Origin: Candidatus Enterousia sp.
GTDB taxonomy: Bacteria; Pseudomonadota; Alphaproteobacteria; Rs-D84
DNA length: 64,000 nt
Reading direction: 5' to 3'
Assembly: GCA_045654485.1 (NCBI GenBank)
Contig: JAZONN010000023.1
Span: 23,305-87,304 of the forward strand
The stretch's first letter is position 1. Each line of letters begins with the position of its first letter. The notes under the pieces were generated by a model. It had not been told where the DNA came from. It was given only the letters and a program-made list of their open reading frames with translations, and searched no databases. This document shows positions 10,064-41,348 of the stretch, piece after piece. The translations under genes were made by a program, and so were the position numbers.

Positions 10064-10089
10064 CCCACCGATTGGTGGGGTATTTTTTT
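10064..10089 (+). terminator. Intrinsic terminator
   Basis: cccacc-gatt-ggtggg + T7. Confidence 0.6.
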
Positions 10090-10159
10090 GGTTTTTTATG
10101 CTGGACAGAAAAAAGAATCTTGTGCTATGCTGTGTTTGTCATCAGAGAGAGTAGATATA

Positions 10160-13100: not shown

Positions 13101-13804
13101 GTGCAAGTGCATTTTCTGGTGCGGTGACAGATGAAGGGTTGTTGGAATATGATCCGGCGATTTCTAATGCTTATATGCCGGCAAAATTGGGCTTGATGCA
13201 GGGGGCGTCAGCCGATGTTGCATGGGGAAACAATCGCTTTGATTTTGTTGCAACAATTGGTGCAGCGCATGAAACGGGTACCATATTGGGGGCGCAGACG
13301 GATGGTTTGTTAGATATGGGAAATGGTGATACAGCGTATATTGATGTGATGGCAAGATTTGATTTATCTGATAATGTACGATTAACCGGTCGGACGACGT
13401 GGGCGCAGACACGCAGCAAACCAAATGGCATGTTTGTGTTGGGAATGTCAGATATATATTCGAATTCTATGTCTTTGGCGGCAAATGTTGGTTCGTTTGA
13501 ATTTTCTGTGGCGCAACCTTTGGCTATATATGATGGTTCATTGAAATATGCGTATGCAGAATATGATGTTGTTAATATGGGTGGGGGTAAGTATGAATTA
13601 AATGTTCTAGATACCCATGTTGAAGATTTAGATTTGTCTGCAGGACGTCGTGAGTTACGCTTTGCCGGTACGTATCGCCGCAGCTTTGGAGAGTTTACAG
13701 ATGGGGCATTTGGCTTTATATATCGTGTAAATCCAAATAATACCGATGAATTTGGAAATGAAAGTGTGTTTATGTTGAAATTAACACATCGTTTGGGATT
13801 TTAA
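10160..13804 (+). CDS. Large outer-membrane/autotransporter-like protein with N-terminal ankyrin repeats and C-terminal beta-barrel-like domain ending in F
   Basis: Start ATG 10160 after gagagag RBS; signal peptide MKFIRSFIFALFFAPFAAGAAS; two ANK repeats (…LVNNGANVNFVDSTGLSIVCTALMNNDVRAAQIL…); last about 300 aa amphipathic beta-strand pattern ending …FMLKLTHRLGF. Confidence 0.55.
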   Translation: MKFIRSFIFALFFAPFAAGAASNDFMVAAQLLAAAKAADIQQVQALVNNGANVNFVDSTGLSIVCTALMNNDVRAAQILQMYGADASQCDRQIRQYNNRNKPKDTGGLFSGLSSAQTISLAAAGAAVVVGGLLLLTDVFDPGNDNESVSGGGTRPGGGGSDNNATAEAYLTVPYSPAYLGTDGKVTTSNEIYLENLAGWNPDAGGLKEADFNFFNDVNVQNYLLMMHGYSAFANEYMGKEIFRDEKNRNPVLVGNKAGGGRPVVVGLVTRNGLNPTGSAERGEGIEYASSASVSSETFLVDKYLNYEKPVNGVLGQEVISAVSAFDLSGAGTAMNPFATSYDSALGKIVAGWYGDGRAYGDFFGFVPYGRLGIFRTGGGKEWVNIEKSTDGAVLGTVAGGGDVAIAVGDKITWNGVTYDILSALTDTGVVRPQITVKDTTYDVANPTNMMIGKCSGDGCTGESDIAIYVGADGYYYVNTMGGDSVDAVWTVKDGNLYAQKELVDADYKNFQALFNARSVDVLANVSVIEPSRNVNYLTVADVPAALKLVKEDGTNYTFIDLIDAVYDRNGTDTTTQGEYAHRLFNGYGTGNPILVMSAGEFALGVGDGLSSSVLDATFENYAPLLYDNNLQHMFMTVVAVGHTGGTKDADSINDYGNGTATEFGPLYLSAWRDKDDTLYMSRKCGIAGLGVNGIDPWCFAAAGATGEMATAAAAGAVASLKAAFSYMTNPQIFTLMALTADGYLLGTDASGKAFDNETLAAYLQNMYALPPEYYPTELSADEYLKAFAEVYGYGLINLERAMTPNKKIYFFDGTNIVSANGNAYWRAATNTTFKPSSTFNLRGATIRAPFYDMVTSVDGNMSLPRVWENEFALGMDGRRSLYMGDVLGELNTRVEDIPKTQIGNLGFSMSWSERAYEDNLGGLDSLVLDYVSGNWEFGASYQRYLTDGMARFTQTHNSILGLMSNALVTDARYQIGNWSFGASAFSGAVTDEGLLEYDPAISNAYMPAKLGLMQGASADVAWGNNRFDFVATIGAAHETGTILGAQTDGLLDMGNGDTAYIDVMARFDLSDNVRLTGRTTWAQTRSKPNGMFVLGMSDIYSNSMSLAANVGSFEFSVAQPLAIYDGSLKYAYAEYDVVNMGGGKYELNVLDTHVEDLDLSAGRRELRFAGTYRRSFGEFTDGAFGFIYRVNPNNTDEFGNESVFMLKLTHRLGF

Positions 13805-17876: not shown

Positions 17877-17909
17877 AGGTCCTAAGGAAATTGTATGTAG
17901 GTGGTGCAC

Positions 17910-20198
17910 ATGATATTAAGAATTTTTGCAACTGTTTTGGCTTTGGTTCCAGGTGTGGCGTTTTCCGCTGTGCGTGGTGAAGATGCGCGTGTAAGTGTTC
18001 AGCGTGTGTCTATGGCGGGGGTTCGTGGTCCCAATATTTCTAAGACATTGCATACGTCGTCTGGTGTTGATGATGTTGTGAAAGACGATGTATCTGGTGA
18101 TAATTCAGATGCGGGTGATGATGTCGGTGGTGATTCGGGCGGTGGAAATACCGATGGTGGTGATTCTAGTGGCGGTAATGATTCTGGTAACGATAATGAA
18201 ACTGGGGATGGTTCCGGTGTTGTTGGTGGTTTGTGTGATCGTGAAATGTATCGAACTTGCATGGATGAATTTTGTTTGATGGATGAAAGTGATGGTGGAC
18301 GTTGTTCTTGTTCGGATAATATCTATGCGGCAGATGCGATTGTTGCAGAGATTCAATCGATTCAATCCAAAGCGGATAAAATGTACACCGAACAGGTTGA
18401 ACGTGAAAAGTTGGGTGCAAACGCTGATTATATTTTTGAGGCAAATGAAACAGAAGAAGTGGTAGCTCAGAAAAAAAGTTTTAGTTCCAGCGATTTGTTG
18501 GCTGATATTTTTGCAACAGATGTTTTGACGGATGAAGAAGAAGTTGTGACACAGTCGCCAGATTTGTCTGCAGATGATATGATTGGTGATGTGTTGTATA
18601 ATAGTGCATATGAATATTGTTCGTCGTCTTATTTGGGGGCGTGTACATCTGCGGTTCGTAATGCGGAAACTATGTTGTATTCTCGTTCGATTACGGCGGA
18701 TTGTAAGGCGTATGATTCTTATTTGGCAGATCAAAAGCGTACAGCCGAAGCCAATGTAAAGACGGCCGAGGCGGCGGTTCGTGCTGCACGTTTGTCTGTG
18801 TTCGGTTCGACAAATAAGTACAATCGTGGTGAATGCTTGTTGGCGTATCGTTCGTGTATCGCAGATAAAGGTGGCTGCGGGACGCATTTTGAAAATTGTT
18901 TGAGTGATTCTTTATTGTCACGTCGTGCAAATGCATGTGAAGATATCTTGAATCAATGTGTGGCAGTTCGTGCCGATGTTGAAAAAGATTGGAAAGAAGA
19001 AAAAGAAATGGTGTTGAATGATGCTGCAAAATTTGCATCACGTAATGCACGTCAGATGTGTTTGGCAAATATGCAGGCCTGTTTAGAAGATAATTGTTCG
19101 ATTGCGACAAATTCTGATTGTTTGGGTAATGTTGATGTTGCGATGAAAATCTGTCCGGTTAGTGAAATTTGTGTTGTTCAATTGCCTGGTACATCAGATG
19201 CGGTAAAAATTAGCGGATTATGGGGTGGGGCATCCGAAATAGAGTTTGAAAATACATTAAAAGTGCCAATTCAAAATAAATTGAAATACCTGCGTACGAA
19301 ATTCTGTCAAAATGATGTTTCAAAATGTTTGCAGGAAAAATGTGGTGCGGACTTTACAGCGCCGGAATGTTTGGGCAAGAAATCATCGGCTTTGGTTGCA
19401 ATGTGTCCACAAAATTCAATCTTGTCTTGTGCAGGGGTTAGTGGTTCTGACTTTGAATTGTTGATTAGTTCTGCGACATTGAAAATGGACTATCAAATTA
19501 TGCAGGGTTGTATAAATCATTTTGGTGAACAATTGGGGCGTGTTTGTGGTACGGATATGTCTTGTTTACCATCTGATGATATTGTTATGGGGATGTCTGA
19601 AATGCCAGAAGACATTGTGGCTGCTCGTAAAGAATTGATTAAAAGAACACAGAAAAGTGTTGAATCGTTCTTTAAGGATTTTGAAAAGGATAAGACGATA
19701 GAGGCCTGTGCGTCTTTGGATGGGGCTTTGGGTGACAAAGTATTTATGAGTGCACGTAAGGTTGCAGAAATTGGTGCAGAAAATCGTGCGTTGCGTCAAT
19801 TAGAGGATAAAATTGCAGAACTGTCACGTAAACAGGATTTGGCCAAAGCCGAAGCAAATTGCTATGCAATGTATGCTGTTGAAACACCGGATGAATCGGA
19901 AAAGAATTATAGCTATATCCGTAGTGTAGTGTTTGAGCCGGATTTGCGCAATTGTCATGTATGCCGTATGCAACAGGTTTGTGAAGAAGGTGGTGAATCT
20001 AAATGGACGTCGGCATTAAAGTCGGCTGCGGGCGGTTTGACAGCGGGTGCATCGGCGGGCACTATGATTTCTCCGGGGTGGGGGACCGCAATTGGTGGTG
20101 TCGTTACCGCGGTAGGTGCCGGTATAGTCGGGGCGCAGGCCGGTGGAAAAGAGGATTTCTGTCAAGAAATCGAAAGTTGTGAAGACGTAAATATGTAA
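17910..20198 (+). CDS. Giant secreted Cys-rich protein, family member (D/G/S-rich acidic linker; N-module LCDREMYRTCMDEFCLMDESDGGRCSCSD)
   Basis: about 762 aa from ATG 17910; signal peptide MILRIFATVLALVPGVAFSA; about 45 Cys; C-terminal Gly-zipper-like hydrophobic segment. Confidence 0.65.
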   Translation: MILRIFATVLALVPGVAFSAVRGEDARVSVQRVSMAGVRGPNISKTLHTSSGVDDVVKDDVSGDNSDAGDDVGGDSGGGNTDGGDSSGGNDSGNDNETGDGSGVVGGLCDREMYRTCMDEFCLMDESDGGRCSCSDNIYAADAIVAEIQSIQSKADKMYTEQVEREKLGANADYIFEANETEEVVAQKKSFSSSDLLADIFATDVLTDEEEVVTQSPDLSADDMIGDVLYNSAYEYCSSSYLGACTSAVRNAETMLYSRSITADCKAYDSYLADQKRTAEANVKTAEAAVRAARLSVFGSTNKYNRGECLLAYRSCIADKGGCGTHFENCLSDSLLSRRANACEDILNQCVAVRADVEKDWKEEKEMVLNDAAKFASRNARQMCLANMQACLEDNCSIATNSDCLGNVDVAMKICPVSEICVVQLPGTSDAVKISGLWGGASEIEFENTLKVPIQNKLKYLRTKFCQNDVSKCLQEKCGADFTAPECLGKKSSALVAMCPQNSILSCAGVSGSDFELLISSATLKMDYQIMQGCINHFGEQLGRVCGTDMSCLPSDDIVMGMSEMPEDIVAARKELIKRTQKSVESFFKDFEKDKTIEACASLDGALGDKVFMSARKVAEIGAENRALRQLEDKIAELSRKQDLAKAEANCYAMYAVETPDESEKNYSYIRSVVFEPDLRNCHVCRMQQVCEEGGESKWTSALKSAAGGLTAGASAGTMISPGWGTAIGGVVTAVGAGIVGAQAGGKEDFCQEIESCEDVNM

Positions 20199-20220: not shown

Positions 20221-22704
20221 ATGCGTAAGAATAGTTTTTTGTTTGTGTGTTTGTGTTGTGCACTGGGGTTTCTCCCAGTGCATAATGCGTTTTCGGCCAC
20301 GCCAAAGAAGGCGGTAAAGCAATCTGCAATTCAAAAAGGAACATCGGTTCGTGTGAAAAGCGAAGCCGTCGGTATTTATGATGAAGATTGTTATAGCGCA
20401 TATTATGGATGTATGGATCAGTTTTGTATTTCAGATAATGAAAGCGGTGGTAGTTGTATTTGTAGCGATGCGTATGCCGGTTATGAGGCGCAGTTAAATG
20501 CAATCAAGGAACAGTTGATTGAAGCAGAACGCATTTCAACGGTCGAGGTTGAAAAAGTAAAGGCAGGTGCCGATGCTGATATTATTTTTACCGGACAAAG
20601 ACAGTATGATAAAAAGGGAAATCTTTTAAGTTTAGATGAAGTAGAAGGTAAAAAATCTGTTGGATTATTGGCTTTGTGGGATGATGCCGTCGAAGAGGAA
20701 GAGGGAGACGAAGATTACGATTCCATTTTCTATGGTGATGATTTGGATGGTTTGACCGGTAATGCTTTGCATAGTGCAGCCCAAGAATTATGTGTTGCGC
20801 AGTTGCCAGATAAATGTGAAGGTGATGTCAGTTTGTTGGCAAGTATGTATTCACGACAGATTGTATCTGACTGCAAGGGTTTGGAAAATAGTTTGCTTCA
20901 AAAACAGGCGACCGCTGATTTGGAAATGTCAAAGGCTGAATCGGCTGTGCGTGCCGCTTTACAGGAAAGTTTAAGCGAATCCAACAAATACACTTTGGGT
21001 GAGTGTATGGTTGAATTCAAAAAATGTATGCGTGGGGCGGATGCATGCGGTACCGATTGGGAACATTGTGTTGGTCAGGTTGCCAGTGAAAATATGCAAA
21101 AATCTTCTTTGCGTGGTAAATCGTATGGTTCAAAGTCGGCATATAATATTACCGAATCTACGATGGAGACATTAGAGGCAAAACGACCAATTTGTGAACG
21201 TGTTCTGTCCAGTTGTGTTGCCGTGCGTGATAATGTGTGGCCGTCGTTCTTAAAGGAAGTGGCACCAACAATTCAATTGGCCGAATCACACATTGAATCG
21301 CGTTTCCGTCAAAGTTGTTTAACGGATATTTCAAATTGTATACATACCGCATGTAAAGATGATATTGCCGGAAAAGGTGTTGCGACAATGGATTCGTGTT
21401 TGGCATATCCGGAAATGGCACGCAGTTTCTGTAAAGTTGAATTGGAACCATGCGAAAAAATGGAACCATTAATTTGGAACTATGTGACCGATAAATTGGC
21501 GGCTATGCGTGTGGATGCATGTACGCAAGAGGTCAAAGATTGTTTTACACATGAATCCAGATGTGGGGAAAATTTCCAGAATTGTATCGGTATTGATTTT
21601 GAACATATCCATGATATGTGTCCGGTTGACAGTTTGGTTGTCTGTAAACAGGGAAATCAGGATTTCAATTTGGATGATTTAGACAAAATGTTGATGGGGC
21701 TGTATTTGAATATCGATACAACCTTGGCGGACCAATGTCAGGAAATTGTTGATAATAAAATGATGGAGATTTGTGGCAGTACAACAGATTGTAACAAATT
21801 TGCATCCGATGATACGATTGGTACCGGTTCTTTGCGTTCACAAAAAGATGGTATCGTGTATCGTTTGACGGGGATGATATCATTTGGTTCTATTCAGGTT
21901 GGTAATGCCAGTGACTATGACCCAAAATCCAGTATTTCAAATCAATTAAAGCCCGGCGAAATTGGCGTGGCAGAATATCTGAAAAAGATTAAAGAGGTAA
22001 ATTCAGATGTGCCAAACCATGAAGGTATTATTTCGGCGATTGAAGAAGAATTGAATAATATCGCGGGTACGATTAATCGTACGATTGAAATGATAGAGCA
22101 GGATCAAAAAATTCAGCACTGTATCCATGGCCGTAATTTAGAGCAGGTTACAGGTGATAAAAAGGATGTTACCACGGGACGTTTCCCAAATCTGTTGAAT
22201 CAAATAAAGATGCAGATTGCGGTTGCGGCTTTGCGTCAGGCCCAAGATAACTATAATGCCAAATGGAACGAAATGTTGGCGGCGGCAAACCATGATGCGT
22301 CTGCGGACGTGGCGCAGTATATGTGTCAAAAAATGGCAGAAAATGCCGCCACCACTTTGACCACTCAAACAAATGGTTTGACACCTCCGTATGCCATCAG
22401 TTATGAAGTTGGGTCGGGATTAAATGTTAATGATTTAACCATTGGTGGACATTCTGTGACCGATTTGGGGCAGACCACTTATAAAAATGATGGCTATCTG
22501 GGGAAATCCAGTGGTACATTTGGGGCTGGTACCAAAGAAACCACGGCGACATTTAATCGTGAAGCCAGAGTTTGTCATTTGTGCACTACGATTATTACCC
22601 AGTCGTGTAAAACAACGGGCAGTAAATCTTGGTTCCATAATAACAGAAATACGTCTTGTACAACTGCGGAACCAATCCAGAAGTGTGAAGATATACCAAT
22701 GTAA
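20221..22704 (+). CDS. Giant secreted Cys-rich protein, family member (N-module EDCYSAYYGCMDQFCISDNESGGSCICSD)
   Basis: 827 aa; 22 bp after the preceding paralogue (co-transcribed); RBS agagagag. Confidence 0.65.
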   Translation: MRKNSFLFVCLCCALGFLPVHNAFSATPKKAVKQSAIQKGTSVRVKSEAVGIYDEDCYSAYYGCMDQFCISDNESGGSCICSDAYAGYEAQLNAIKEQLIEAERISTVEVEKVKAGADADIIFTGQRQYDKKGNLLSLDEVEGKKSVGLLALWDDAVEEEEGDEDYDSIFYGDDLDGLTGNALHSAAQELCVAQLPDKCEGDVSLLASMYSRQIVSDCKGLENSLLQKQATADLEMSKAESAVRAALQESLSESNKYTLGECMVEFKKCMRGADACGTDWEHCVGQVASENMQKSSLRGKSYGSKSAYNITESTMETLEAKRPICERVLSSCVAVRDNVWPSFLKEVAPTIQLAESHIESRFRQSCLTDISNCIHTACKDDIAGKGVATMDSCLAYPEMARSFCKVELEPCEKMEPLIWNYVTDKLAAMRVDACTQEVKDCFTHESRCGENFQNCIGIDFEHIHDMCPVDSLVVCKQGNQDFNLDDLDKMLMGLYLNIDTTLADQCQEIVDNKMMEICGSTTDCNKFASDDTIGTGSLRSQKDGIVYRLTGMISFGSIQVGNASDYDPKSSISNQLKPGEIGVAEYLKKIKEVNSDVPNHEGIISAIEEELNNIAGTINRTIEMIEQDQKIQHCIHGRNLEQVTGDKKDVTTGRFPNLLNQIKMQIAVAALRQAQDNYNAKWNEMLAAANHDASADVAQYMCQKMAENAATTLTTQTNGLTPPYAISYEVGSGLNVNDLTIGGHSVTDLGQTTYKNDGYLGKSSGTFGAGTKETTATFNREARVCHLCTTIITQSCKTTGSKSWFHNNRNTSCTTAEPIQKCEDIPM

Positions 22705-24952: not shown

Positions 24953-25534
24953 ATGGCTTTAATTCCAATGGTTATCGAAGAATCTCCACGTGGTGAACGT
25001 TCTTTTGATATTTATTCACGTTTGTTGCGTGATCGTATTATTGTTGTTGGGGGTGAAATTGAACCCAATATGGCAAATAGTATTGTTGCACAATTGTTGT
25101 TCTTGGAATCAGAAAACCCAAATGCGGATATTTCTATGTATATAAATAGTCCCGGGGGCGACGTGTCGGCCGGTTGGGCGATTATGGATACTATGCAGTA
25201 TATCAAGGCGCCTGTATCAACAATTGGTATGGGGTTGGTTGCGTCTATGGGGTCTGTACTGTTGGCCGCCGGTGAAAAAGGTAAACGTTTTGTTTTGCCA
25301 AATACGCAGGTTATGATTCATCAACCTTTGGCCGGTGCACGTGGTCAGATTACGGATATGGAAATTCAAATGGCGCAGTATCAAAAAAATAAACAGACGT
25401 TGATAAAACAAATGTCTGAATTTACAGGGCGTAAAGAAAAAGAACTTTTTGATGCAATGGAACGCGATAATTGGATGGATCCGGGCGAAGCGAAAAAATT
25501 CGGATTGATTGATGGTATTTTGGAACGTAAATAA
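24953..25534 (+). CDS. clpP: ATP-dependent Clp protease proteolytic subunit ClpP
   Basis: 193 aa; [23 protein letters not shown] (Ser), MIHQP (His), …[11 protein letters not shown] (Asp) triad motifs. Confidence 0.95.
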
Positions 25535-25552: not shown

Positions 25553-26812
25553 ATGAGTGACGATAAAACACCAAAAACAGAAAATAATCAGCAGTTTTGC
25601 AGTTTTTGTGGCAAAGCGGTTTATGAAGTAAAAAAATTGGTTAGTGGGCGTAACGTCTGTATTTGCGATGAATGTATTAATCTGTGTAATGATATTATGG
25701 CGGATGATAATCGTCGTGAAATTAGCAAGGATGTGGCAAAGTTGCCAACCCCATCCCAAATTTATAACTTCTTGAACGAATACATTATTGGTCAAGATAC
25801 TGCAAAACGTACTTTGGCGGTGGCGGTTTATAATCACTTTAAACGTCATACGGTGGCGGCATCTTCTGATGTGGAAATTCAAAAATCTAATGTGTTGTTG
25901 ATTGGGTCAACGGGTACGGGTAAAACGCTGTTTGCTCAAACTTTGGCACGTATCTTGGATGTGCCATTTGCGATTGCGGATGCAACCACTTTGACCGAGG
26001 CCGGATATGTTGGTGATGATGTTGAAAGTGTTTTGACACGTTTGTTGCAAAATGCAAATTTTGATGTGGAACGTGCCAGCCGTGGTATTATTTATATCGA
26101 CGAAATTGATAAGATTTCACGTAAATCTGAAAATCCATCTTTGACACGAGATGTATCGGGTGAGGGTGTTCAACAGGCATTGTTGAAATTAATAGAAGGT
26201 ACCGTTGCAAATGTTCCGGCCGGTGGGGCGGGGCGTAAGCATCCGGGTGAAGCGACCGTTCAGTTGGATACCAGCAAAATTTTATTTATCTGTGGTGGTG
26301 CATTTGATGGATTGAATAAAATTATTGGCAATCGTACATGTGAACGTCGTGGAATTGGGTTTGGTGCACATGTGGAATCGGCCGAAGAACGCAAAAATAA
26401 GAATTTCTTGGCAGATGTTGAACCAGAAGATTTGGTAAAATTTGGAATCATTCCAGAATTGATTGGTCGTTTGCCGGTTATTACAACATTGCAAGAATTG
26501 GACGAAGACGCATTGGTTAAGATTTTGACAGAGCCAAAAAATGCTGTTGTTAAACAATTTGCTGCTATGTTGGGTATGGATGATGTTAAATTGAATATTA
26601 CCGATGATGGTTTGCGTGCAATTGCAAAGATGGCTGTGGCACGTAAGACCGGTGCACGTGGATTGCGTAGTATTTTGGAACGTATCTTGATGCAACCTAT
26701 GTTTGATGCACCAGATAAAGAAGATTTAGCAGAAATTGTTATTGATGCGGATGTCGTAGATGGTAAAAAGGCGCCCGTTGAGATATTAAAGGAAGCTAAA
26801 AAGGCCGCATAA
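25553..26812 (+). CDS. clpX: ATP-dependent Clp protease ATP-binding subunit ClpX
   Basis: C4 zinc finger CSFCGK…CICDEC, Walker [31 protein letters not shown], sensor motifs. Confidence 0.95.
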
Positions 26813-28265: not shown

Positions 28266-28375
28266 ACAGTGTGCGTTATTGTATATCAAAAAGCACAGAA
28301 TATCAATGTATTTTATATGTATAGTTGACAAAAGTCGCTTGCGTGCTATATGTTATACGGATAAGAGGATATAAA

Positions 28376-30418
28376 ATGGCAAAAAATACAGTATCATATG
28401 AAGCGTTGCTGGTCGATGGGGCTGAATTGACTGGTGTTAAGGTCGATCTGTTTGATTTACCATACGATAAAATGGTAAATGGTGTGCGTTTAATGATAAC
28501 CGAAGACGTTTTTATGAATGCGTCAAAAGGTCAGCAATGGCCTGATTTTACTAATGTTGATATAGTTGGTGGGTTGGATTGTTGTAAATTTAAAATTATG
28601 CCAACTACTGTTTTGCCGGCGACATTTGCATGGCTGGATTGTCAACATGCGATTGGTAGTTTAGATGTCTTGATGGGAAAAATTCCAGAAACCTGTGAAG
28701 AAATACATGTTCGACACGCTTTGTTTAATAATATTAAAAATAACAAAGATGGTGCTTTGGATGAAGCGCGTGCGTTTGTTGAGATGTATCCAGATGTGGA
28801 AGTGTTGGATGGTGATAATAGTTTGGCGGATTTGTTGCGTGAAATAGATAAGAAGCAGGTCGTGGCACAATCCGTTGCAACGGTTGCAGAGGTTAAGCAA
28901 GTTGAAGTTGTAGAGCCAAAAACAGATGAATGGTATAGTGCCGAAGAGTTGATTTCGTTTTGTCGCAGTGCGTCCAAGGAATTGGGTACTTTGTCGGATG
29001 ATGTTTTGGGGCGTTTGGTTCAAACTGCGCGTTCACAGAAGGCGAATTTGAAATTGCGTTCCGCAACAAAAAAACGTGAAGATGGTGCAGATATCGTTTG
29101 TGTGCATCGTGATGACGCAATGCGTGTTGTTGAACATGTTGTCGAATCTGTGGCGGATGTTCAGAAACGGGCAGATGCGAAAAAGAAGGCGTCTAAAAAG
29201 TCGGGTGGTAAAAAGGCGCAAGTAAAAGAGGAAGATGCGGTTGTACCCAAGAAATATTATCATAATGGCACAGAAGTCAAAGTTGCCAAAATTAAAAAAT
29301 ATATTTCTAAATCGACATGGCGTGATTTGTGTGCGCATTGTAATAAAAATGTTGCTGATTTGTTAAAAATCTTGAACGATATTAATGACGTTAATGTTGT
29401 ACCACGGTATTTGGGCAATACGTTGGGTGTAGTGTTGTATGTTAAAGATAATTTGGTTCATTCTGCCCCGACTTTGACATTCAAAGAAGGTAAATGTTTG
29501 TCGCAAAGTTTTGGGACCTTGAATGACAGGCCACGTTTGGTCTGGGGAATTGCGGGTAATGTCTTGGTGGCACAGAAATTGTTCCCAGAACACGAAGGCA
29601 AAAGACGTATGGAATATAATAATTATTGCAGTGGTTTGAAAATTGATTTGAAAACATTGGATTGGTCGAAATATTTGTTGGTGTCGGAATTGATAAAGGA
29701 ACTGTCCGATGGTCGTGGTATAGATGGCGAAGAAGATAATGTGGCAGCAACCGAATTGAACGGCGATGTTGTGGCAGAAGTACCGGTCCAACAGGAATGT
29801 GTTGCGGATGTGTTGCCGTCTGTTCCAAAGATTTCTGATGATGGCAAATCTGATACGTCCGATGATGTTTCGGATGGGAAGCTAGATGATGGTACGGGTG
29901 ATGGTTTGCCACCATCGGGTGGTGATACCGGTGGCGGTACCTGTGAAAAAAGCAGAGCGCGTCGTCCACGTATAGTCCGTACAGTAAGCACTTATGTGCC
30001 GCCACGTAATACAAAAAGACCGTCAACCAATTCCACGGTGTCGGTTGAAGTCGTCGGTATGAACAGGGGGGCGGAACCTGTTGTTAATGTTGCAACCAAA
30101 GGTTTGGGCGCCAAATCAGATGCCGTGATTGATTCGGATATGCAATCAAATGGCGAAGTTGGGGCAAAAGCTGCATGGCAACAAGTATATTCCTTGTCGC
30201 GTGATTATGAAAAACATTTGTTGTCATTGGATGAGCAAAAACGTATGTTGCTGGGGGTAATGGCCAAAGAAACCAAAGCGGGTGTTTTGTTGATGCTGTC
30301 TAAGAAATTGCAAAGAGTTTTGGTGCAAATGAAACGTTGCGAAGATTTAATCGAGGAAATGCAGGATATTAATACAGCGCTGCATAAGTTGTATCAAGGT
30401 ATGCATCGGAAAAGATAA
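28376..30418 (+). CDS. Hypothetical cytoplasmic protein with basic (KKASKKSGGKK) and acidic/Gly-rich (DDGKSDTSDDVSDGKLDDGTGDG…GGDTGGG) low-complexity regions and C-terminal coiled coil
   Basis: ATG 28376 with aagagga RBS and TTGACA-16/17-TATATG promoter at 28325; no signal peptide. Confidence 0.5.
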   Translation: MAKNTVSYEALLVDGAELTGVKVDLFDLPYDKMVNGVRLMITEDVFMNASKGQQWPDFTNVDIVGGLDCCKFKIMPTTVLPATFAWLDCQHAIGSLDVLMGKIPETCEEIHVRHALFNNIKNNKDGALDEARAFVEMYPDVEVLDGDNSLADLLREIDKKQVVAQSVATVAEVKQVEVVEPKTDEWYSAEELISFCRSASKELGTLSDDVLGRLVQTARSQKANLKLRSATKKREDGADIVCVHRDDAMRVVEHVVESVADVQKRADAKKKASKKSGGKKAQVKEEDAVVPKKYYHNGTEVKVAKIKKYISKSTWRDLCAHCNKNVADLLKILNDINDVNVVPRYLGNTLGVVLYVKDNLVHSAPTLTFKEGKCLSQSFGTLNDRPRLVWGIAGNVLVAQKLFPEHEGKRRMEYNNYCSGLKIDLKTLDWSKYLLVSELIKELSDGRGIDGEEDNVAATELNGDVVAEVPVQQECVADVLPSVPKISDDGKSDTSDDVSDGKLDDGTGDGLPPSGGDTGGGTCEKSRARRPRIVRTVSTYVPPRNTKRPSTNSTVSVEVVGMNRGAEPVVNVATKGLGAKSDAVIDSDMQSNGEVGAKAAWQQVYSLSRDYEKHLLSLDEQKRMLLGVMAKETKAGVLLMLSKKLQRVLVQMKRCEDLIEEMQDINTALHKLYQGMHRKR

Positions 30419-32070: not shown

Positions 32071-32408
32071 GTTGTGGGCCTCCTATTAAATTTGTGTGTT
32101 TTGTACGTTGTTATATTATGCATAAAATCCTATTGTTGTGCAAGCGCAAATATTAGGATAAAAATCCGAAATCGCCTTAAAAACCTATGCTTTATTCGTG
32201 TAATAGTAGAATATCTTTGTTGTGTCGTGTGTAATAAGCGAATCGGTAAATAGCTTTTGTTTGACCGGTGTTTGTAAAATTATTGTGTTGGATTGTTTAA
32301 AAAATTTAATGTTTTTAATCAATATATTTATCGATTGAATTATTATAGCAATATTAGTTGTTGTGGGAGGGTGGTTGACAATAAATTTGTTTGTGTTATG
32401 TTTGCTGT

Positions 32409-33578
32409 ATGACAGATAAAGATGAAGTAATTTTGATGTCCGCAGGTAATAATACGGATAAGCGCAGTTTTGCCCAACGTTTTCGTGAACGCTTGGTGTA
32501 TCCTTTTCATAAAAAACGTTTTTATGCCCAATGGGAAAATGCGCCAATGGAGATGCGTTTTCGTTTGACAAACAAATGTAATGAAAACTGTATGCGCTGT
32601 TTTGAATGTTCGGGGCCTGATAATCCGTTAAATATTGTTCCGGATGATGATATTTCGTTTTATGTCAACGGTGGTGCGAATGTGTTTTCCGGTCTGTATA
32701 TGACGGGTGGTGAATGGTCTTTGATATATGATGTGCATCCGCACTATTTACGTGAAATATTTGATAAATTGAATTTTGCAAAGTCCAAAGAATACGTGAT
32801 ACAAACGAATGCACGATGGATAAATGGGGTGCATAGTAATGAAATTCTTGGTGATATAAAATACATTCAATCTAAACTAAAGTTGCAAAAACGGTTATTG
32901 AAGTTGGATATGTCTGTGGACAGATATCGTAGTGATAAAAGTATTGAATGTGTACGAGATGTTATTTGTGCGATTGCGTCCGACAGAAAATTTGATAATA
33001 CTAAAATTCGTCTGATGTCGTGTGCGTTGGATGCCAAAATGGCAAATGAACGGGTTTTAATTCCGGAATTTTTTGCTAAACATGGTATAGAATTGAAATT
33101 TGAAAATCGATCATGGATTAATCCTTATTCCCAAGTATGTTATGCAAATAATATACGTATTGTAATTCATGAAGAAGGCCCCACAATGTGTATTGGGCGT
33201 GCAAAACAAAATAACATAGGTTATAAAATTTATTACCCGCAATTACAGTGTGGCGGTTTGCAACCGGAACGTACTTTGATGGAATTGTCGTTGCGTGAAG
33301 ATGGTATGATAAAATGGCATAATTGGTACGATTGGGGTATTATGGTGCCGTATAAAGATAAAGACGGACAATATAAGCCGTTATCACAAATTCGTGCAGA
33401 ATTGGTTGATATGGTGTGGGCACGGCTGTTGCGTTATAATATAAAAAATGCTTTTTTGAATTTATTGCCAATATATGGTGCAATTCGCCAAATTTATATC
33501 GCTAAGCAAATCAAAAAAACGTATGAAGAAAACATAAAGCAGTTTGTGTATCATGCTACCCCGATAAAAGAGTTGTAA
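32409..33578 (+). CDS. Radical SAM domain protein (orphan)
   Basis: CxxxCxxC motif CNENCMRC near N-terminus; start uncertain (32409 or 32436), no clear RBS, possibly leaderless from TTGACA-16-TATGTT at 32375. Confidence 0.5.
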   Translation: MTDKDEVILMSAGNNTDKRSFAQRFRERLVYPFHKKRFYAQWENAPMEMRFRLTNKCNENCMRCFECSGPDNPLNIVPDDDISFYVNGGANVFSGLYMTGGEWSLIYDVHPHYLREIFDKLNFAKSKEYVIQTNARWINGVHSNEILGDIKYIQSKLKLQKRLLKLDMSVDRYRSDKSIECVRDVICAIASDRKFDNTKIRLMSCALDAKMANERVLIPEFFAKHGIELKFENRSWINPYSQVCYANNIRIVIHEEGPTMCIGRAKQNNIGYKIYYPQLQCGGLQPERTLMELSLREDGMIKWHNWYDWGIMVPYKDKDGQYKPLSQIRAELVDMVWARLLRYNIKNAFLNLLPIYGAIRQIYIAKQIKKTYEENIKQFVYHATPIKEL

Positions 33579-33602: not shown

Positions 33603-33661
33603 CAGACCAAAATAAAAATCCCCAAAAAGGGGATTTTAATTCTGGTGGCCCTGGTCGGACT
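33603..33661. repeat. 59-bp direct repeat copy A (duplicate of tRNA-Leu 3'-terminal 19 nt plus downstream terminator hairpin)
   Basis: cagaccaaaataaaaatccccaaaaaggggattttaattctggtggccctggtcggact identical to 33822-33880. Confidence 0.85.
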
Positions 33662-33821
33662 GTATAATTCCCTCGGCATGAATGCCTGCGGGGCAACCGT
33701 GACGATTTCGCGGTACGATGTTTGCGAAATCTACTTGTTGTCCCATTGGGTATATGTTGTTGGTTGGGCCCCTTTCACTTCGCATACGCTACGTTCCGAA
33801 CCGGTCGGTTCTTCGTCCAAC

Positions 33822-33880
33822 CAGACCAAAATAAAAATCCCCAAAAAGGGGATTTTAATTCTGGTGGCCCTGGTCGGACT
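33822..33880. repeat. 59-bp direct repeat copy B (overlaps authentic 3' end of tRNA-Leu and its terminator)
   Basis: identical to 33603-33661; contains terminator aaaatcccc-aaaaa-ggggatttt. Confidence 0.85.
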
Positions 33881-33946
33881 CGAACCGACACTCCTTGCAG
33901 AACTTGATTTTGAGTCAAGCGCGTCTACCAATTCCGCCACGGGGCC
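33862..33946 (-). tRNA. tRNA-Leu (anticodon CAA), class II with long variable arm
   Basis: Minus strand GGCCCCGTGGCGGAATTGGTAGACGCGCTTGACTCAAAATCAAG…GTCGGTTCGAGTCCGACCAGGGCCACCA; anticodon loop CTCAAAA; one C-A mismatch in acceptor stem; encoded CCA. Confidence 0.8.
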
Positions 33947-33963: not shown

Positions 33964-34332
33964 TTATGCGGCTTTCTTTGCTTCAACTTTTTTGACCAAG
34001 CGTGCGCTGCGGTTTGCTTTGTGTGCAGGTTTTTTCGCAGGTGCTTCTGGTTTCCCAGCTTTCTTTTCAATGGCTTTTTTAATTGCAGCCATTTCTTCGG
34101 TCAAACGTGATACAGGTTTTGACATTACATATGCGTCCAAACCACCGTGTTTGGTCAATGTACGCAGACCAGCGGTTGAAATGCGCAATGAAAAATCACG
34201 TCCCAAAATATCACTGTGGAACTTTAATGTTTGTAGATTTGGCAAGAACGTACGTTTTGTACGACGATGAGAGTGGGATACGTTCATCCCAACTTCTGTT
34301 TTCTTACCTGTAACTTTACATACACGTGGCAT
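33964..34332 (-). CDS. rpmB: 50S ribosomal protein L28 with long K/A-rich C-terminal extension
   Basis: MPRVCKVTGKKTEVGMNVSHSHRRTKRTFLPNLQ… typical L28; aaagg RBS; extension …KKAGKPEAPAKKPAHKANRSARLVKKVEAKKAA. Confidence 0.85.
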   Translation of the reverse strand: MPRVCKVTGKKTEVGMNVSHSHRRTKRTFLPNLQTLKFHSDILGRDFSLRISTAGLRTLTKHGGLDAYVMSKPVSRLTEEMAAIKKAIEKKAGKPEAPAKKPAHKANRSARLVKKVEAKKAA

Positions 34333-34417: not shown

Positions 34418-35845
34418 TTAATTTTTATGCGATGGTTTTATCAGGTCTGATATGACTTTGACCGGTGTAAATGTGGTTAATGGCGTTTCCACAAATACGG
34501 TGTTCCAATTAGCCATTGCGCCATTCCACAGACCGGGACGTTCCATTGCGCGCAGTGGGCGGCCACCGCTGCTTTTTTTGGAAATAAAGCCCGCGCGTTC
34601 GTCGATAAAGTTTAATAAATTAAAACGGTTTCCCATATAATCGCGTGGCATACATACTATGTCTGTGGGGCTGAAAAATTCGCCACGTTTTAATATGTCT
34701 ATGTTGTCGGGGGCAATTTGTGCGGGTTCTACGATTTGCAATCCCAACAATCCATTTTTGTCGCGTACCCAAAATGGGCCACCGCCCGGTTCGCCGGTGT
34801 TTTTAATGATGCCACATATGCGTAGTGGTCGATTAAGAATGTCACGGACATTTGTGTCAGCGTTTGTTTTTATGCCCAATGTGGTATCGATGAAGTTGCG
34901 AATTTCGTTTGTGTCCGCCGTGTCATTGTCCAGCGCACGCATGTAATCAAAAATTTGCGTTTGGATTTGCATTGCCAATCCCGCCAAGGCGCGTTTGTGA
35001 TAAATCGTGTCTGCACGTGCCGATTCGGGGCATACGTTATCGATGTTTTTGATAAATATAATATCTGCATCAATATTGTTCAGGTTTGCAATTAATGCGC
35101 CGTGACCTGCGGGACGGAATAATAATTTGCCGTCATCTGTTCTGAAGGGGGTGTTGTCCAAATTCACCGCGATTGTATCGGTCGATGGCTGTTGCGTGGA
35201 CATTGTGATATTGTATTTTACCGATAAAGCCGATTCGTATTGTGGGATAATTTCGGCCAAATGCGTGTTAAATCCATCTATGTGTTCGGGTGATACGGTA
35301 AAGTGTATATTGACCATGTCATTGGATTTTGCGTATTGTGCGCCTTCGATTAAATGTTCGGCCAATGCGGTACGGTTAAAGCCGTCGTATTTGTGGAATT
35401 GTAATAATGCTTTTGGCAGGTTGCCATAGTTTATACCGGCGTCCGTTACCAAGTGTTTGATTATATCCATGTTTGATGGGTTTTCGGGCAGGGTGGCACG
35501 CAAATCATCGTAAAATGCGAATTGTTCCAGATTTTCCAATACCAATTGGGTGGTTTTATTCATTTCGCCGGTTGTCATATATTCAAACAGGTCTTTGAAC
35601 ATTCGTGTGGCCGCGCCGGATGCGGGGACGAACTTTACAATATTGTATTTGTCTTGATTGCGTGTGTAATGTTCAACCCAGTTGTTGTCCAACATAGGTC
35701 TGATGCCGTGGTTGATTGTGGCGGCGGATTCTATGTCAGAATATGGAAAGCCGGTTTCAAAATCGCGCAGTTGACGATTTACAATGTCCAAGGTTAATTC
35801 GTGATTTTCAATTTGTTTGATATCAGATTCAGAAAAGTATGACAT
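34418..35845 (-). CDS. Conserved hypothetical protein (about 475 aa, possibly DUF4301-like)
   Basis: aaagga RBS; no catalytic motif recognised with confidence. Confidence 0.45.
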   Translation of the reverse strand: MSYFSESDIKQIENHELTLDIVNRQLRDFETGFPYSDIESAATINHGIRPMLDNNWVEHYTRNQDKYNIVKFVPASGAATRMFKDLFEYMTTGEMNKTTQLVLENLEQFAFYDDLRATLPENPSNMDIIKHLVTDAGINYGNLPKALLQFHKYDGFNRTALAEHLIEGAQYAKSNDMVNIHFTVSPEHIDGFNTHLAEIIPQYESALSVKYNITMSTQQPSTDTIAVNLDNTPFRTDDGKLLFRPAGHGALIANLNNIDADIIFIKNIDNVCPESARADTIYHKRALAGLAMQIQTQIFDYMRALDNDTADTNEIRNFIDTTLGIKTNADTNVRDILNRPLRICGIIKNTGEPGGGPFWVRDKNGLLGLQIVEPAQIAPDNIDILKRGEFFSPTDIVCMPRDYMGNRFNLLNFIDERAGFISKKSSGGRPLRAMERPGLWNGAMANWNTVFVETPLTTFTPVKVISDLIKPSHKN

Positions 35846-38135: not shown

Positions 38136-38333
38136 TGTTATAATATGTGTGTTGTCGGGTGTTTCGACAATGGGGTGTGAGAACCTCTGCCACAGTGTCC
38201 GAATCGTTCGGATAAAACCTTCTGACCATTGGTCAGGAGGGTCGCTAAATATATTGAATAAGTGACACGATTCTGTGGATTGTTCTCAACCTCCTGGCCA
38301 CCTGAATTTGGTGGTTTTTTGTTTGGAGGTATT
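38136..38333 (+). promoter_or_regulatory. Extended -10 promoter (TGTTATAAT) and about 180-nt structured 5' leader ending in a terminator-like hairpin (ccacc-tgaattt-ggtgg + T6, 38298-38320) 14 nt before the start codon
   Basis: TGnTATAAT at 38136-38144; hairpins ccgaa-tcg-ttcgg, ctgacc-att-ggtcag; the segment gagaacctctg could pair alternatively with ggttgagaaca region (antiterminator-like). Confidence 0.3.
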
Positions 38334-41300
38334 ATGCGTTCGTTTGTGCTGATTTTGTCGATTGTTTTGTACGGTATGCCCGTGTTGGCGGCTGCGCCTG
38401 CGCAACGTCGTGCCGTTGGGGTGGCGCGTGCGGCACGAACGACGTCGGTTGCGACGCGTGGGACATCGCGCGCAAGTACTGCGACATCGGCACAATCTGT
38501 GTCGGCGCCGTCTGTGGTGGCGCGCGCGGGGGCCAAACAAAGTGTTGTTGGGACCGGTACAAAAGTTGCCGCGGCGGTCGTAAATCCTGTGTCTGGCAGT
38601 GAGTGTGGTGTTAAATTTAATGGTTGTATGGATTCGTTTTGTATGCTGGATAATATCAGTGGTGGTCGTTGTATATGCAGTAACAAAAAATCAGAATTGG
38701 ATGAAATTTTAACTGAAATTGAACGATTGGACGCACAATCATATCGTTTGGCAACGATTGGTGTGGATCAATTGCAAATGGGCGAACATGCGGATCAGGC
38801 CGTTGCAAATGTGAACAAAGCCACGGGCGCAACGCGTGATGTGCAGACGCGTGGAAAATTGGATTTGTCGTTGTGGGACACCCAGACGGACAGTGGTGAT
38901 GGTGCGGATTTTTCGACGTCTGGGATAATAGATAAAACCGGGGCGGAATTATATAATTCTGCGGTGGAAGTTTGTGCGGCCCGTATGCCCGAATGTGCCA
39001 CAAATATAGATTCGTTAAAATTGATATATAATCAGTATATTAAATCGGATTGTATGGCATATGAAAACGCATTAAAGAAACAAAAAGCGGCCGCCGATAA
39101 AAAGATGGCGACCGCGCAAAGTGCAATGCGTATCGCGGCTTTGGATAAAATTCATCAGGCCAATAAATACGATTTGGGGCAATGTACAATTGAATTTACC
39201 GAATGTATGAAAACAACGGCGGAATGCGGTGCGGATTTTTCAAAATGTGCAACAATGTCTGCTTTGGATTCCACCAACAGCATGGAAAAGTCAACCGCCA
39301 AACCAAAGATTCATGGAATTAAAACGGGCGTTGCGGTAATTGAAATTCAAGCGACGACGTATGATGCTTTGTTTGCGAAAAAGCCATTGTGTGACACGAT
39401 TTTGAAATCGTGCGATGCGGTTGCGGATAAAGTTTGGGATGCGTTTTTGCGTGCCAATGCGCCACAAATAAAAAATGCCGAATTAATTGCGGAAAATACG
39501 ATGCGTCAAGAATGTATTGGGCGTATATCGGATTGCTTTGCCAAAGGGTGTAAAGATAATATTGACCCAAAAGATCCCGATGGTTCGTATGATATGTGTT
39601 TAACCCGTCCGGAAACAATGCTGTCGGTTTGTAAAGTGCCGTTAAATTCGTGTGGTGTTGATGCGTCGAATGTTGAATTGGCGGTTGCGTCACCAATATG
39701 GAACTTTGTTGTTGACCGTTTGGCATCAATGCGCGTTGATTCATGCACTAAACAGGTTAAAGAGTGTTTGACCGGTGAAGGCAACTGTGGTGAAAATTAT
39801 GCGAATTGTGTTGGGTTGGATACGGATACGATTGTTCGTATGTGCCCATATGATAAATTGGTCGGATGCCAAGAAAGATATCGTGATATCGATATTCACG
39901 GTGATGAAGTGTATGATGAATTGGCGACGATGGTTCGTGGTTTGATGATTAATATAGACAATGAAATGTTAACGCATTGCCAAAAAGCATTGGATGAATC
40001 TATGTTGCGCGTATGTGGTGCGACGGATAATTGTGATGCGGTCGTGTTTGGTGGTAATGCCGATTTGGGCGCAGGATCTTTGGATTATGGGATTTGTAAT
40101 ATTTATGCCAATGATGACGGTGGTTTGGTGTTGGATGAAGGTGTGTGTCGTGCAGATGCGTCCATGGTGACAGATGGTGAATTGGGGTATAAGGGAACGC
40201 CGGTGCCAATGGTGGGAATGATAAGTGGGCAGATATATTGGGGGATGATTGAACATGATGACAAAGGGCATTTGACGGATGCGCAGACATTTTTAGATAT
40301 GATTGCGGATGATGAAGTTAAAATGTCAGAGAAACAGCAACAGCGTATATCGAAAGAAATAAATGCATTGCAACATAATGTTGATAGCGCAATAACAATG
40401 GTTGAATCCGATACAACGGTTCAATATTGTATGACGGGGCGTTTGGTTCCTGGGGCAAAAATATTTGAAGGTCAAACACCGCGTTTTCCCGAATTAACAA
40501 AATCGGTTCGTAAATTAATTGCGTCGCATGCATTAAAAACGGCGAAGGATAATTATGGAAAAAAATACGATGAAATAACCACCCAAATGTTGCAAGATCA
40601 GGCGACTATAGCGGAACGTTATGCCCAGATAGAGGGTAAAAATGCGCGTGATGCCCATCGTGAAATGGCGCGAAAATCATGTATTGCATTGGCGCCAATG
40701 TCTGCGGTGCCACGCAGTGCCGAACCGCCAAAAAATATGTGGGGAACTGTGATTGTTGTGGCGGCTATTGTGATTGCGGTTGTTGTGGTGTCTGTTGTCA
40801 CTTTTGGGGCGGGGGCTGCGCCGGCGGGGGGGGCGGGGGCTACGGGGATCAGTGCTCTTCTTTCCTCTGCGGCATCGGCGACAGTAGGGGCGGCGGCGGC
40901 GTCTGCGGCAACGGCGGCGGGGGCGGCGGCATCTGCATCTGTAATTGCGGCAGGTGGGTCGACAATTGCAGCGTTTTCGGCTATGATGTCTGCTGGGATG
41001 ACTGCTGGGATGGTGGCTGGATATGCTACTGTGGCTGCGGGGGCGATTGTGGGTGCGGGATTGGCGGCTGGTGGTGTTGCCGGGGCGGTTGCGATGGGAC
41101 GTGCAGCCAATACTTCGGTAAATGACGCGCCGCGTTTTTACACCGAAGCCGATTTGAAAGGTACATATGAATTAAAGCAATGGAATTATCGTGAAACGGT
41201 TGAAACAAAGTTTGATGTGGATACATTTGTGTGTGAAAAATGTGTCACAACACAAAATTGTTCCGATCCACGTAATCCTATGTTCGGGAACAAGAATTGT

Positions 41301-41348
41301 AAAAAGTGGGGCAAAAAGAAAACAACGTGTTCCGATATTCAATTCTGA
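38334..41348 (+). CDS. Giant secreted Cys-rich protein, family member (N-module SECGVKFNGCMDSFCMLDNISGGRCICSN), with TM helix and about 130-aa Gly/Ala/Ser-rich hydrophobic region near C-terminus
   Basis: ATG 38334 after ggagg RBS; signal peptide MRSFVLILSIVLYGMPVLAAAPA; R/T/A-rich linker; modules aligned with 765/827/786 paralogues. Confidence 0.65.
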   Translation: MRSFVLILSIVLYGMPVLAAAPAQRRAVGVARAARTTSVATRGTSRASTATSAQSVSAPSVVARAGAKQSVVGTGTKVAAAVVNPVSGSECGVKFNGCMDSFCMLDNISGGRCICSNKKSELDEILTEIERLDAQSYRLATIGVDQLQMGEHADQAVANVNKATGATRDVQTRGKLDLSLWDTQTDSGDGADFSTSGIIDKTGAELYNSAVEVCAARMPECATNIDSLKLIYNQYIKSDCMAYENALKKQKAAADKKMATAQSAMRIAALDKIHQANKYDLGQCTIEFTECMKTTAECGADFSKCATMSALDSTNSMEKSTAKPKIHGIKTGVAVIEIQATTYDALFAKKPLCDTILKSCDAVADKVWDAFLRANAPQIKNAELIAENTMRQECIGRISDCFAKGCKDNIDPKDPDGSYDMCLTRPETMLSVCKVPLNSCGVDASNVELAVASPIWNFVVDRLASMRVDSCTKQVKECLTGEGNCGENYANCVGLDTDTIVRMCPYDKLVGCQERYRDIDIHGDEVYDELATMVRGLMINIDNEMLTHCQKALDESMLRVCGATDNCDAVVFGGNADLGAGSLDYGICNIYANDDGGLVLDEGVCRADASMVTDGELGYKGTPVPMVGMISGQIYWGMIEHDDKGHLTDAQTFLDMIADDEVKMSEKQQQRISKEINALQHNVDSAITMVESDTTVQYCMTGRLVPGAKIFEGQTPRFPELTKSVRKLIASHALKTAKDNYGKKYDEITTQMLQDQATIAERYAQIEGKNARDAHREMARKSCIALAPMSAVPRSAEPPKNMWGTVIVVAAIVIAVVVVSVVTFGAGAAPAGGAGATGISALLSSAASATVGAAAASAATAAGAAASASVIAAGGSTIAAFSAMMSAGMTAGMVAGYATVAAGAIVGAGLAAGGVAGAVAMGRAANTSVNDAPRFYTEADLKGTYELKQWNYRETVETKFDVDTFVCEKCVTTQNCSDPRNPMFGNKNCKKWGKKKTTCSDIQF
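40795..41100. repeat. GC-rich low-complexity (GCG/GGC-rich) coding repeat region encoding poly-Ala/Gly/Ser hydrophobic segment
   Basis: runs such as gcggcggcggcgtctgcggcaacggcggcgggggcggcggc; local GC far above window mean. Confidence 0.5.

Follow-up and report, generated by a model that had tools for sequence, protein, structure and literature searches.

Direct repeats of a tRNA 3' end that begin in the T-loop are the usual signature of integration by a tyrosine recombinase, and tRNA-Leu(CAA) is known as an island site in E. coli (leuX). The locus described here lies downstream of a tRNA-Leu(CAA) gene in Candidatus Enterousia. It resembles tRNA att sites and CIMEs (PMC5704250) in its same-orientation direct repeat of a tRNA 3' end from the T-loop, in its presence or absence between strains and in a possible tandem accretion. 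In contrast to these elements, there is no integrase nearby, the cargo comprises only 100-215 nt and shows a conserved, GC-rich, strand-specific fold with compensatory changes. It is furthermore found at one locus only, forms mosaic arrays, and has an identity block of variable extent in other species.

tRNA-like RNAs and processing signals include the acceptor/T-arm minihelix, plant mitochondrial t-elements, mascRNA and viral 3' tRNA-like structures. The Enterousia unit shares with them a helix like an acceptor stem on a T-stem, a single-stranded NCCA-type end, an adjacent gene with which it is probably co-transcribed, and a predicted recognition by RNase P and CCA-handling enzymes. However, its T-loop is replaced by a multi-hairpin domain of 30-190 nt, it is bacterial, chromosomal, tandem and derived from the neighbouring tRNA, and it is recognised by neither ARAGORN nor Rfam as a tRNA or tmRNA. 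Tandem sRNA genes like PrrF1/2 and OmrA/B evolve by unequal crossing-over. They are comparable as adjacent homologous RNA genes with conserved ends, variable middles and a recombination-driven copy number, but unlike the unit they encode Hfq-type linear sRNAs with own promoters and are not tRNA-derived. MITEs and REP-like elements are likewise short, non-coding and hairpin-rich with complementary termini, whereas the unit is not dispersed, all copies follow one tRNA gene, and the usual target-site duplication is missing. A functional RNA from a tRNA operon trailer is the 3'ETS-leuZ sponge of E. coli, which is mentioned in PMC6191717. Like the unit, it is a non-tRNA RNA encoded just 3' of a tRNA-Leu gene on whose transcription it depends, but it lies before the operon terminator and is not tRNA-like, while the unit follows the terminator and has its own terminator, too.

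Enterousia comprises uncultured gut Alphaproteobacteria, and the genus is named in a paper on novel farm-animal gut lineages with reduced genomes (PMC12306168). Our preferred reading of the locus is that positions 33643-33827 (minus strand) are a gene for a tRNA-Leu-derived, tRNA-like structured non-coding RNA, whose units are gained and lost by homologous recombination. We would give this reading about an even chance of being correct.

The tRNA-Leu(CAA) locus and its direct repeat

The window is the whole stretch of 64,000 nucleotides that was analysed, and related loci or contigs compared with it are labelled by L-numbers (L001, L207 etc.). The gene rpmB served as conserved anchor for the retrieval of related loci, using an exact match to the L28 protein. 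The following features were found around the tRNA gene:

32391-33578, plus strand: ORF of 395 aa, convergent, with a CX3CX2C motif and no Pfam match
33603-33661, minus strand: repeat copy 2, the unit's own tRNA-like 3' end (33643-33661), terminator and GGTCTG stub (33603-33608)
33615-33637, minus strand: second terminator-like hairpin with T-run
33822-33880, minus strand: repeat copy 1, the authentic tRNA 3' end A (33862-33880) followed by trailer and terminator B (33822-33861)
33834-33856, minus strand: terminator hairpin of tRNA-Leu, intrinsic-terminator-like, AAAATCCCC TTTTT GGGGATTTT followed by a T-run
33862-33946, minus strand: tRNA-Leu(CAA) gene (ARAGORN; Rfam RF00005, 57.9 bits), 18 nt downstream of rpmB
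33964-34332, minus strand: rpmB, ribosomal protein L28 (Pfam PF00830), directly upstream of the tRNA
34418-35845, minus strand: flanking gene of a DUF4301 protein

The original prediction of a tRNA-Leu(CAA) on the minus strand is borne out by both ARAGORN and Rfam. It had also described a perfect 59-bp repeat of the last 19 nt of this tRNA plus 40 nt with the terminator hairpin, with authentic copy B (here copy 1) and displaced copy A (here copy 2), and the coordinates as well as the description proved right. In the repeat search, 33603-33661 and 33822-33880 are 100% identical with a start-to-start spacing of 219, leaving 160 bp (33662-33821) between the two copies. The 19-nt part, AGTCCGACCAGGGCCACCA, reaches from the last 3 nt of the T-loop through CCA (tRNA nt 58-76). 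It is followed by a trailer of 34 nt, which contains the terminator-like hairpin and T-run, and by the hexamer GGTCTG, together 40 nt. With up to three mismatches allowed, the 64 kb contain exactly two copies each of the 19-mer and the 40-mer, while none would be expected from dinucleotide shuffles. The last 6 nt of copy 1, GGTCTG, are already the 5' end of the downstream unit, and the GGTCTG stub at the end of copy 2 looks as if another unit, now lost, had begun there. The repeat is no assembly artefact, since it is arranged in the same way in independent assemblies of the species, namely L001/L208 and, with divergence of the second copy, L207. The contig L001 belongs to the same species as the window with 99% protein identity.

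The gene order DUF4301, rpmB, tRNA-Leu(CAA) is kept in about 20 further species. The 395-aa ORF is a variable flank outside the unit, as L210 pairs this gene with an empty site.

Some further observations were made on the neighbourhood. The motif of the 395-aa ORF reads CNENCMRC and is radical-SAM-like. The same-species contig L001 lacks 1025 bp at 32327-33350, covering part of the region of this ORF, and the identity to L001 falls from 98% to 87% across the junction, which marks a recombination boundary beside the tRNA-Leu site. The nearest relatives of the DUF4301 protein outside the Enterousia clade belong to Rikenellaceae/Alistipes (Bacteroidota) with about 50% identity, a similarity that may reflect inter-phylum transfer within the gut. 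Six large ORFs of 697-1238 aa have no Pfam domain (10088-13804, 15100-17460, 17901-20198, 20221-22704, 28325-30418 and 38262-41348). A Fic/DOC-family ORF is located at 51604-52329 (minus strand), and a second ClpP-like ORF at 54189-54866 (minus strand), apart from the ORF at 24953-25534 beside a clpX-like ORF at 25553-26812; the identities of the latter two were assigned from synteny only. GC skew is positive in nearly all 1-kb bins of 1-64000 and the cumulative skew climbs almost throughout, so that the window as a whole seems to be part of a single replichore, its plus strand being strongly G-rich.

Anatomy and predicted fold of the unit

The 160 bp between the repeat copies had been described as unrelated sequence. 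This turned out to be wrong, because the start of the spacer together with GGTCTG is complementary to the duplicated tRNA 3' fragment, and the spacer is conserved in other species. Spacer and tRNA-like 3' end together form a unit with the following parts:

33643-33827, minus strand: candidate tRNA-like RNA unit (X + A'), 185 nt, ending ...CAGGGCC-ACCA
33815-33827, minus strand: 5' strand of the closing helix, GGUCUGGUUGGAC, like the 5' strands of an acceptor and a T-stem joined together (minimum-free-energy fold)
33798-33811, minus strand: hairpin P2, GAACC-GACC-GGUUC
33662-33796, minus strand: internal module M, about 135 nt, between the T-loop-like halves TTCG and AGT
33647-33660, minus strand: closing helix, 3' side, GUCCGACCAGGGCC, made up of the duplicated 3' strands of T-stem and acceptor
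33643-33646, minus strand: ACCA following the closing helix

On the tRNA strand, the units are arranged as a 5' strand, GA(A)GAACCG-N-CGGUUCG, the internal module, AGU-CCGAC-CAGGGCC-ACCA and the terminator. The last part of the second element is the 5' side of the tRNA T-arm (in the window, the 3' half of P2, CGGTTCG at 33797-33803, matches it), and AGU-CCGAC-CAGGGCC-ACCA is the tRNA 3' end. In the predicted closing helix of the window, GGUCUG-GUUGG-AC pairs over 12-13 bp with the copied 3' strands of T-stem and acceptor and leaves a free 3' ACCA. This helix resembles an acceptor stem stacked on a T-stem and encloses, across the units, a multi-hairpin domain of 100-215 nt. The domain is multi-branched and consists of the hairpin GAACC/GGUUC, the block of GCGAAGUGAAAGGGGCCC, a lineage-variable hairpin and GGGAAUUAUAC; within module M, the conserved GCGAAGUGAAAGGGGCCC is located at 33766-33783 and the conserved GGGAAUUAUAC at 33662-33672, with the lineage-variable hairpin region as its third part. 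Cloverleaf-like folds are predicted, in which the closing helix with its ACCA tail at the 3' end is combined with two to four arms. A unit without module M was found in L286 and has an intact GGTTCGAGTCCGACCAG, so that the module lies precisely at the TTCG/AGT junction of a T-loop-like sequence. Where the tRNA loop is TTCGATT, as in L016 and L020, the module is located between TTCG and ATT. Each unit has its own intact terminator hairpin, the stem sequences of which are wholly different between units.

The unit is not a canonical tRNA. ARAGORN and the Rfam tRNA model call only two genuine tRNAs in the window, and the unit has no D and anticodon arms. A tmRNA or permuted tmRNA was considered due to GGACG...GGUUCG, which resembles tmRNA ends, and was rejected: ARAGORN finds none, the Rfam model tmRNA_permuted reaches 12-19 bits against a gathering score of 47, no conserved ORF or tag ORF is present, and the unit is dispensable. 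A search of Rfam 15 returned the tRNA and sub-threshold hairpin noise only. The unit family seems to be previously undescribed and is a member of no curated Rfam family. A small peptide encoded in the spacer was discarded as well, as the 17-codon ORF is not conserved in L010.

Several signals point to a structured RNA. Of 14 distinct units, 13 form a closing helix (9-13 bp) that outperforms at least 96% of shuffles, and the duplex of the window reaches -22.2 kcal/mol compared to -10.6 for shuffles, none of 300 being as good. In the model alignment 93.3% of the cells are paired, compared to 87.6% in shuffles (0/500) and 6-47% with slid partners; these covariation and pairing statistics come from about ten related sequences in an alignment fitted to the model, so the counts lean towards the model. 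Hairpin P2 is paired in 100% of the cells across units, and its sole variants, GAGCC and GAATC, give wobble pairs that fit the tRNA strand only. In the group L262-270 the tRNA has the T-stem AUCGG/CCGAU, and the 5' strand of the unit is changed to AUCGG to match. Altered and re-matched outer helices occur in L225 (GCCCG/CGGGC) and L006 (CCCGUG/CACGGG). The inner helix of type II, predicted by RNAalifold from four units, has 7 bp with a tandem G.A; three of the seven pairs are double-compensatory (GGU..ACC, GAU..AUC, GGC..GCC), and all pairs are kept. In all eight units analysed, folding gives a lower z-score on the tRNA strand, and in seven of them it is ≤ -2.6, with -3.0 in the window against -0.8 on the other strand. 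GC contents of 0.46-0.65 were observed for the units and 0.37-0.48 for their loci. Because of the compensatory changes, the folding of the tRNA strand, the GC enrichment and a conservation comparable to that of neighbouring genes, there is moderate support for the unit family as a conserved structured RNA. We also considered that the plus strand might encode a second pseudo-tRNA with a shared bidirectional terminator. This was rejected, since the plus-strand fold is no better than shuffles and the wobble changes fit the minus strand only.

Some copies do not follow this pattern. There is no folding signal in L016 (z = +0.25), several units including L013, L253 and L257 have a mismatch in the T-like stem, and CCA is degraded in L016, L020, L225 and L215. 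In L207, the second 3' end and conserved motifs are altered in a way suggestive of decay, and units are truncated in L015, L013, L224 and L252. Frequent loss and such truncated or degenerate copies would be expected if the units were non-functional debris. The hairpin-rich DNA of T-stem, acceptor and terminator would then drive slippage or template switching, and thereby duplicate the tRNA 3' half and terminator again and again. Gene conversion would partly homogenise these copies, which apart from that would drift and become deleted. Nested partial duplications like the 37-bp period inside the units of L258, the GGTCTG stub past the second window terminator with its appearance of a remnant unit, and the frequent end of contigs at the locus also fit this explanation. 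However, between species with 55-70% identity in the neighbouring proteins, the first 60 nt at the 5' end and several internal blocks show a conservation like that of coding DNA, and compensatory changes occur in helices without a tRNA counterpart to convert from. The adaptation of the unit 5' strand to the lineage-specific T-stem and the strand-specific folding likewise disagree with drifting debris. Reduced genomes are expected to purge junk. The host lineage is described as genome-reduced (PMC12306168). We therefore consider debris an unlikely explanation.

A recurrent breakpoint 'GGACGA|' was examined as a site of specific cleavage and rejected, as the fourth unit of L258 is diverged and not truncated and the truncation points differ between loci.

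Distribution, strain variation and mobility

Homologues of the spacer follow the tRNA-Leu terminator in about 12 species groups, as 1-4 tandem units, while units are missing from about half of the related species groups. They were found in L010, L013, L016, L020, L003 and L006, in the human-gut groups L224-241 and L290, in the bovine group L266-270, and in L252 and L286. L015 has a shortened copy, L215-223 have shortened or diverged units, and L253-261 contain tandem arrays, of which that of L258 consists of three full 124-bp units and a diverged fourth. Array length and unit order vary between strains, and terminator types are unlinked to unit types, resulting in a mosaic. Differences of one unit were seen for L225 and L229 compared to L226 and for L286 compared to L282.

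The unit is conserved across species. The window and L013 share an identical 22-mer, GGACGAAGAACCGACCGGTTCG, with only 61% identity of the neighbouring DUF4301 protein, and a 20-mer variant is identical in L003, L224-241, L252 and L290. The BLAST block covering rpmB, the tRNA and the unit 5' part shows 85.7% DNA identity, which is equal to or higher than that of flanking coding blocks. The window unit matches the covariance model R1 with 85.8 bits (E = 2e-17).

The family lives directly downstream of tRNA-Leu(CAA) only, in Candidatus Enterousia and relatives. In 1.9 Mb of sequence, the motif was matched exclusively at 124-300 nt downstream of the tRNA-Leu(CAA) start, on the same strand, and in 732 kb every significant match to the covariance model falls just behind this gene, again on its strand. 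No copy was detected at other loci in the 1.9 Mb (motif) or the 732 kb (model), so the family is bound to the tRNA-Leu(CAA) locus and is not a dispersed repeat of the MITE/REP type. When the pattern GGACGAN{3,4}CCGACCGGTTCG was run against metagenome contigs, the matches among those listed were chance matches in high-GC coding DNA; four viral matches to it were rejected as chance, too.

Other repeats were observed near the arrays. REP-like palindromes recur downstream of tRNA-Leu in L005, L006, L011, L012, L258-L261 and L266, e.g., GTCATTCCCGCGCAGGCGGGAATGAC and GTCATCCCGGGCTTGACCCGGGA or positions 6008-6035 and 6128-6152 of L258, and are located inside units in L266 and L006. Many short-read contigs end at the tRNA-Leu array locus, and the palindromes may explain these assembly breaks. 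About 350 bp past the array of L258 (6290-6340), there is an inverted copy of the CCCAC...GTGGG hairpin module known from the unit (CCCACGAAAATTGCATTTTCGTGGGGCCCGGTATCG), followed by structured-looking sequence off the contig; this region has no Rfam match at the gathering threshold. In L252-L261, which have one shared L28 protein, the genes past the array vary between DUF805/PolA, glycosyltransferases and an inverted ClpP. As the downstream genes differ between strains, the array coincides with a synteny breakpoint here.

Within the species of the window, ten contigs with an exact match to the L28 protein were compared. L205, L206, L209, L210 and L212 are empty, i.e., the tRNA with the 19-mer is followed by the terminator, GGTCTG and ATCAAC..., with exactly one 219-bp unit fewer. 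The site is occupied by the 219-bp unit in the window, in L001/L208 and in L207, where the second 3' end has diverged to AGTCCGACGAGCCGCCACCA. In L210 an empty site stands next to the 395-aa gene that also neighbours the repeat in the window, which shows that the polymorphism does not depend on the flank. Over DUF4301, rpmB and the tRNA, L213 and L214 share 97% identity with the window, yet they carry two further, different variants. With at least four alleles in one species, the tRNA-Leu(CAA) site is hypervariable. The hexamer GGTCTG, which follows the terminator in the empty sites and the second terminator in the window, represents the first 6 nt of the unit. This suggests deletion as the origin of the empty sites and truncated units as the ends of arrays.

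The repeat had originally been interpreted as the attL/attR footprint of a tyrosine recombinase, left either as the scar of an island or by a miniature element. The direct repeat of the tRNA 3' part (59/59) and the difference between empty and occupied sites by the element plus one repeat copy are as expected for an att pair, but this empty/occupied pattern is equally predicted by homologous recombination. The statement that no integrase is present in the window holds: none of its 40 ORFs ≥185 aa has a recombinase, transposase or reverse-transcriptase Pfam match. The gene lists of about 100 related loci also contain no integrase, transposase or reverse transcriptase, none was found in the 160-bp segment, and IMG/VR viral contigs, INPHARED phages and PLSDB plasmids gave no match and hence no episomal or parent form. 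Together with the conserved and structured spacer, these results give the footprint no support. Ideas of a retron, a bridge RNA or an IS605-type element were dropped as there is no adjacent reverse transcriptase or transposase and no dispersed copy; for a retron msr-msd, no RVT match was found in the window or the related gene lists.

For the scar, attL and attR would have been left adjacent after an internal deletion in an island or prophage. The repeat start in the T-loop and the use of tRNA-Leu(CAA) by islands in E. coli speak for it. However, when relatives were searched for an occupied site, no integrase-bearing version was seen in any related strain or species; they carry the same or a homologous short arrangement without an island, and it is common to many species. 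This is an outcome that the original prediction had itself named as a refutation. The spacer is unlike leftover island DNA or AT-rich att arms, because it is conserved and GC-rich, with a strand-specific fold and compensatory changes. In addition, the second copy includes the terminator exactly in the window but not in L010 and L013, which fits gene conversion better than a fixed att core. The scar thus finds no backing and is very improbable.

The miniature element fared better, as a discrete 219-bp unit, present or absent between strains, fits it. It could be a small non-autonomous integrative cassette moved by a recombinase encoded elsewhere in the genome, either a reduced CIME-like element that keeps a segment of about attP size or a structured module inserting at T-loop position 57/58. 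Tandem arrays would then be accretion at a displaced att copy, and excision would give the circular junction X3'-A-B-X5' (GGGAATTATAC-AGTCC...ACCA-terminator-GGTCTGGTTGGAC). This is consistent with the presence or absence of exactly one repeat-bounded unit, the cassette-like reshuffling of units in arrays between strains, the number of alleles beside 97% identical flanks, and the size of 219 bp, which is about that of an attP. The exact position of the module between TTCG and AGT/ATT in lineages of either T-loop variant and the M-less unit with intact GGTTCGAGTCCGACCAG are in line with it as well. tRNA 3' ends are classic integrase targets, and CIME accretion at attR is documented (PMC5704250). 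On the other hand, the mobility genes named above are missing from the window and the related loci, no intact parent element is located at the site in any strain seen, and neither a copy elsewhere in 1.9 Mb nor a phage, plasmid or viral match exists. Strand-asymmetric folding, GC richness and compensatory changes are unexpected of att arms, and the mosaicism of the arrays points to recombination at many positions and not at one core site. Taken together, we regard such a cassette as rather doubtful.

Possible origin, expression and role of the unit

Under the preferred reading, a tRNA-like RNA gene, the unit would have descended from a partial duplication of the tRNA top half and terminator. 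Gene conversion would keep its 3' end and terminator identical to the adjacent tRNA, and this homogenisation may have led to the perfect 59-mer here and to the imperfect repeats in L207, L010 and L013. Gene conversion alone, without selection on an RNA, could also explain why the 3' half agrees with the host tRNA. The 59-bp repeat is a putative substrate of unequal recombination of the RecA type, by which whole units would be deleted or added, giving rise to the empty, one-unit and multi-unit alleles between strains. As the repeat provides 59 bp of perfect identity, homologous recombination is enough for gain and loss of units. It is further supported by the polymorphism of exactly one unit, the mosaic arrays and the presence of recO in the window.

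While the anatomy, conservation, polymorphism and structural signals of the unit are observed, its transcription, processing and function are inferred as follows. In the promoter search, no sigma-70-like promoter was identified between the tRNA terminator and the unit or inside the terminator region. Transcription of the unit would therefore need read-through of the terminator, and it is predicted to be expressed from the rpmB-tRNA-Leu transcript. Processing would involve an RNase P-type 5' cut at the acceptor-like helix and a tRNA-like 3' trimming to CCA. The predicted fold may act as a mimic of the tRNA acceptor and T domain, e.g., as decoy or competitor for enzymes or toxins which recognise the tRNA top half. 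The unit is dispensable, being absent from five same-species contigs and about half of the related species groups.

A more far-reaching proposal, which we put forward only tentatively, is an undescribed bacterial class of tRNA-derived RNAs. These would be CCA-ending and cloverleaf-like, built on the acceptor/T-stem helix of tRNA-Leu with a swappable module at T-loop position 57/58, and kept as hypervariable arrays for conflict, e.g., as decoys for tRNA-targeting nucleases or phage factors. Alternatively, within the same tentative proposal, the module itself might target T-loops, as a small structured RNA insertion or an element similar to an intron.

A duplicated tRNA 3' end from the T-loop is usually read as an integrase footprint. 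The comparative data for this locus indicate a different, locus-bound entity, which calls for caution in annotation. The hypervariability between strains, with empty sites, one or up to four units and several alleles per species, makes the locus a possible strain marker and recombination hotspot. If the units are expressed, they would represent a new bacterial family of tRNA-derived, tRNA-like RNAs that is absent from Rfam 15. Such a family would have been born by duplication of a tRNA top half and diversified by insertion of structured modules, and would show how a natural tRNA scaffold may give rise to new RNAs.
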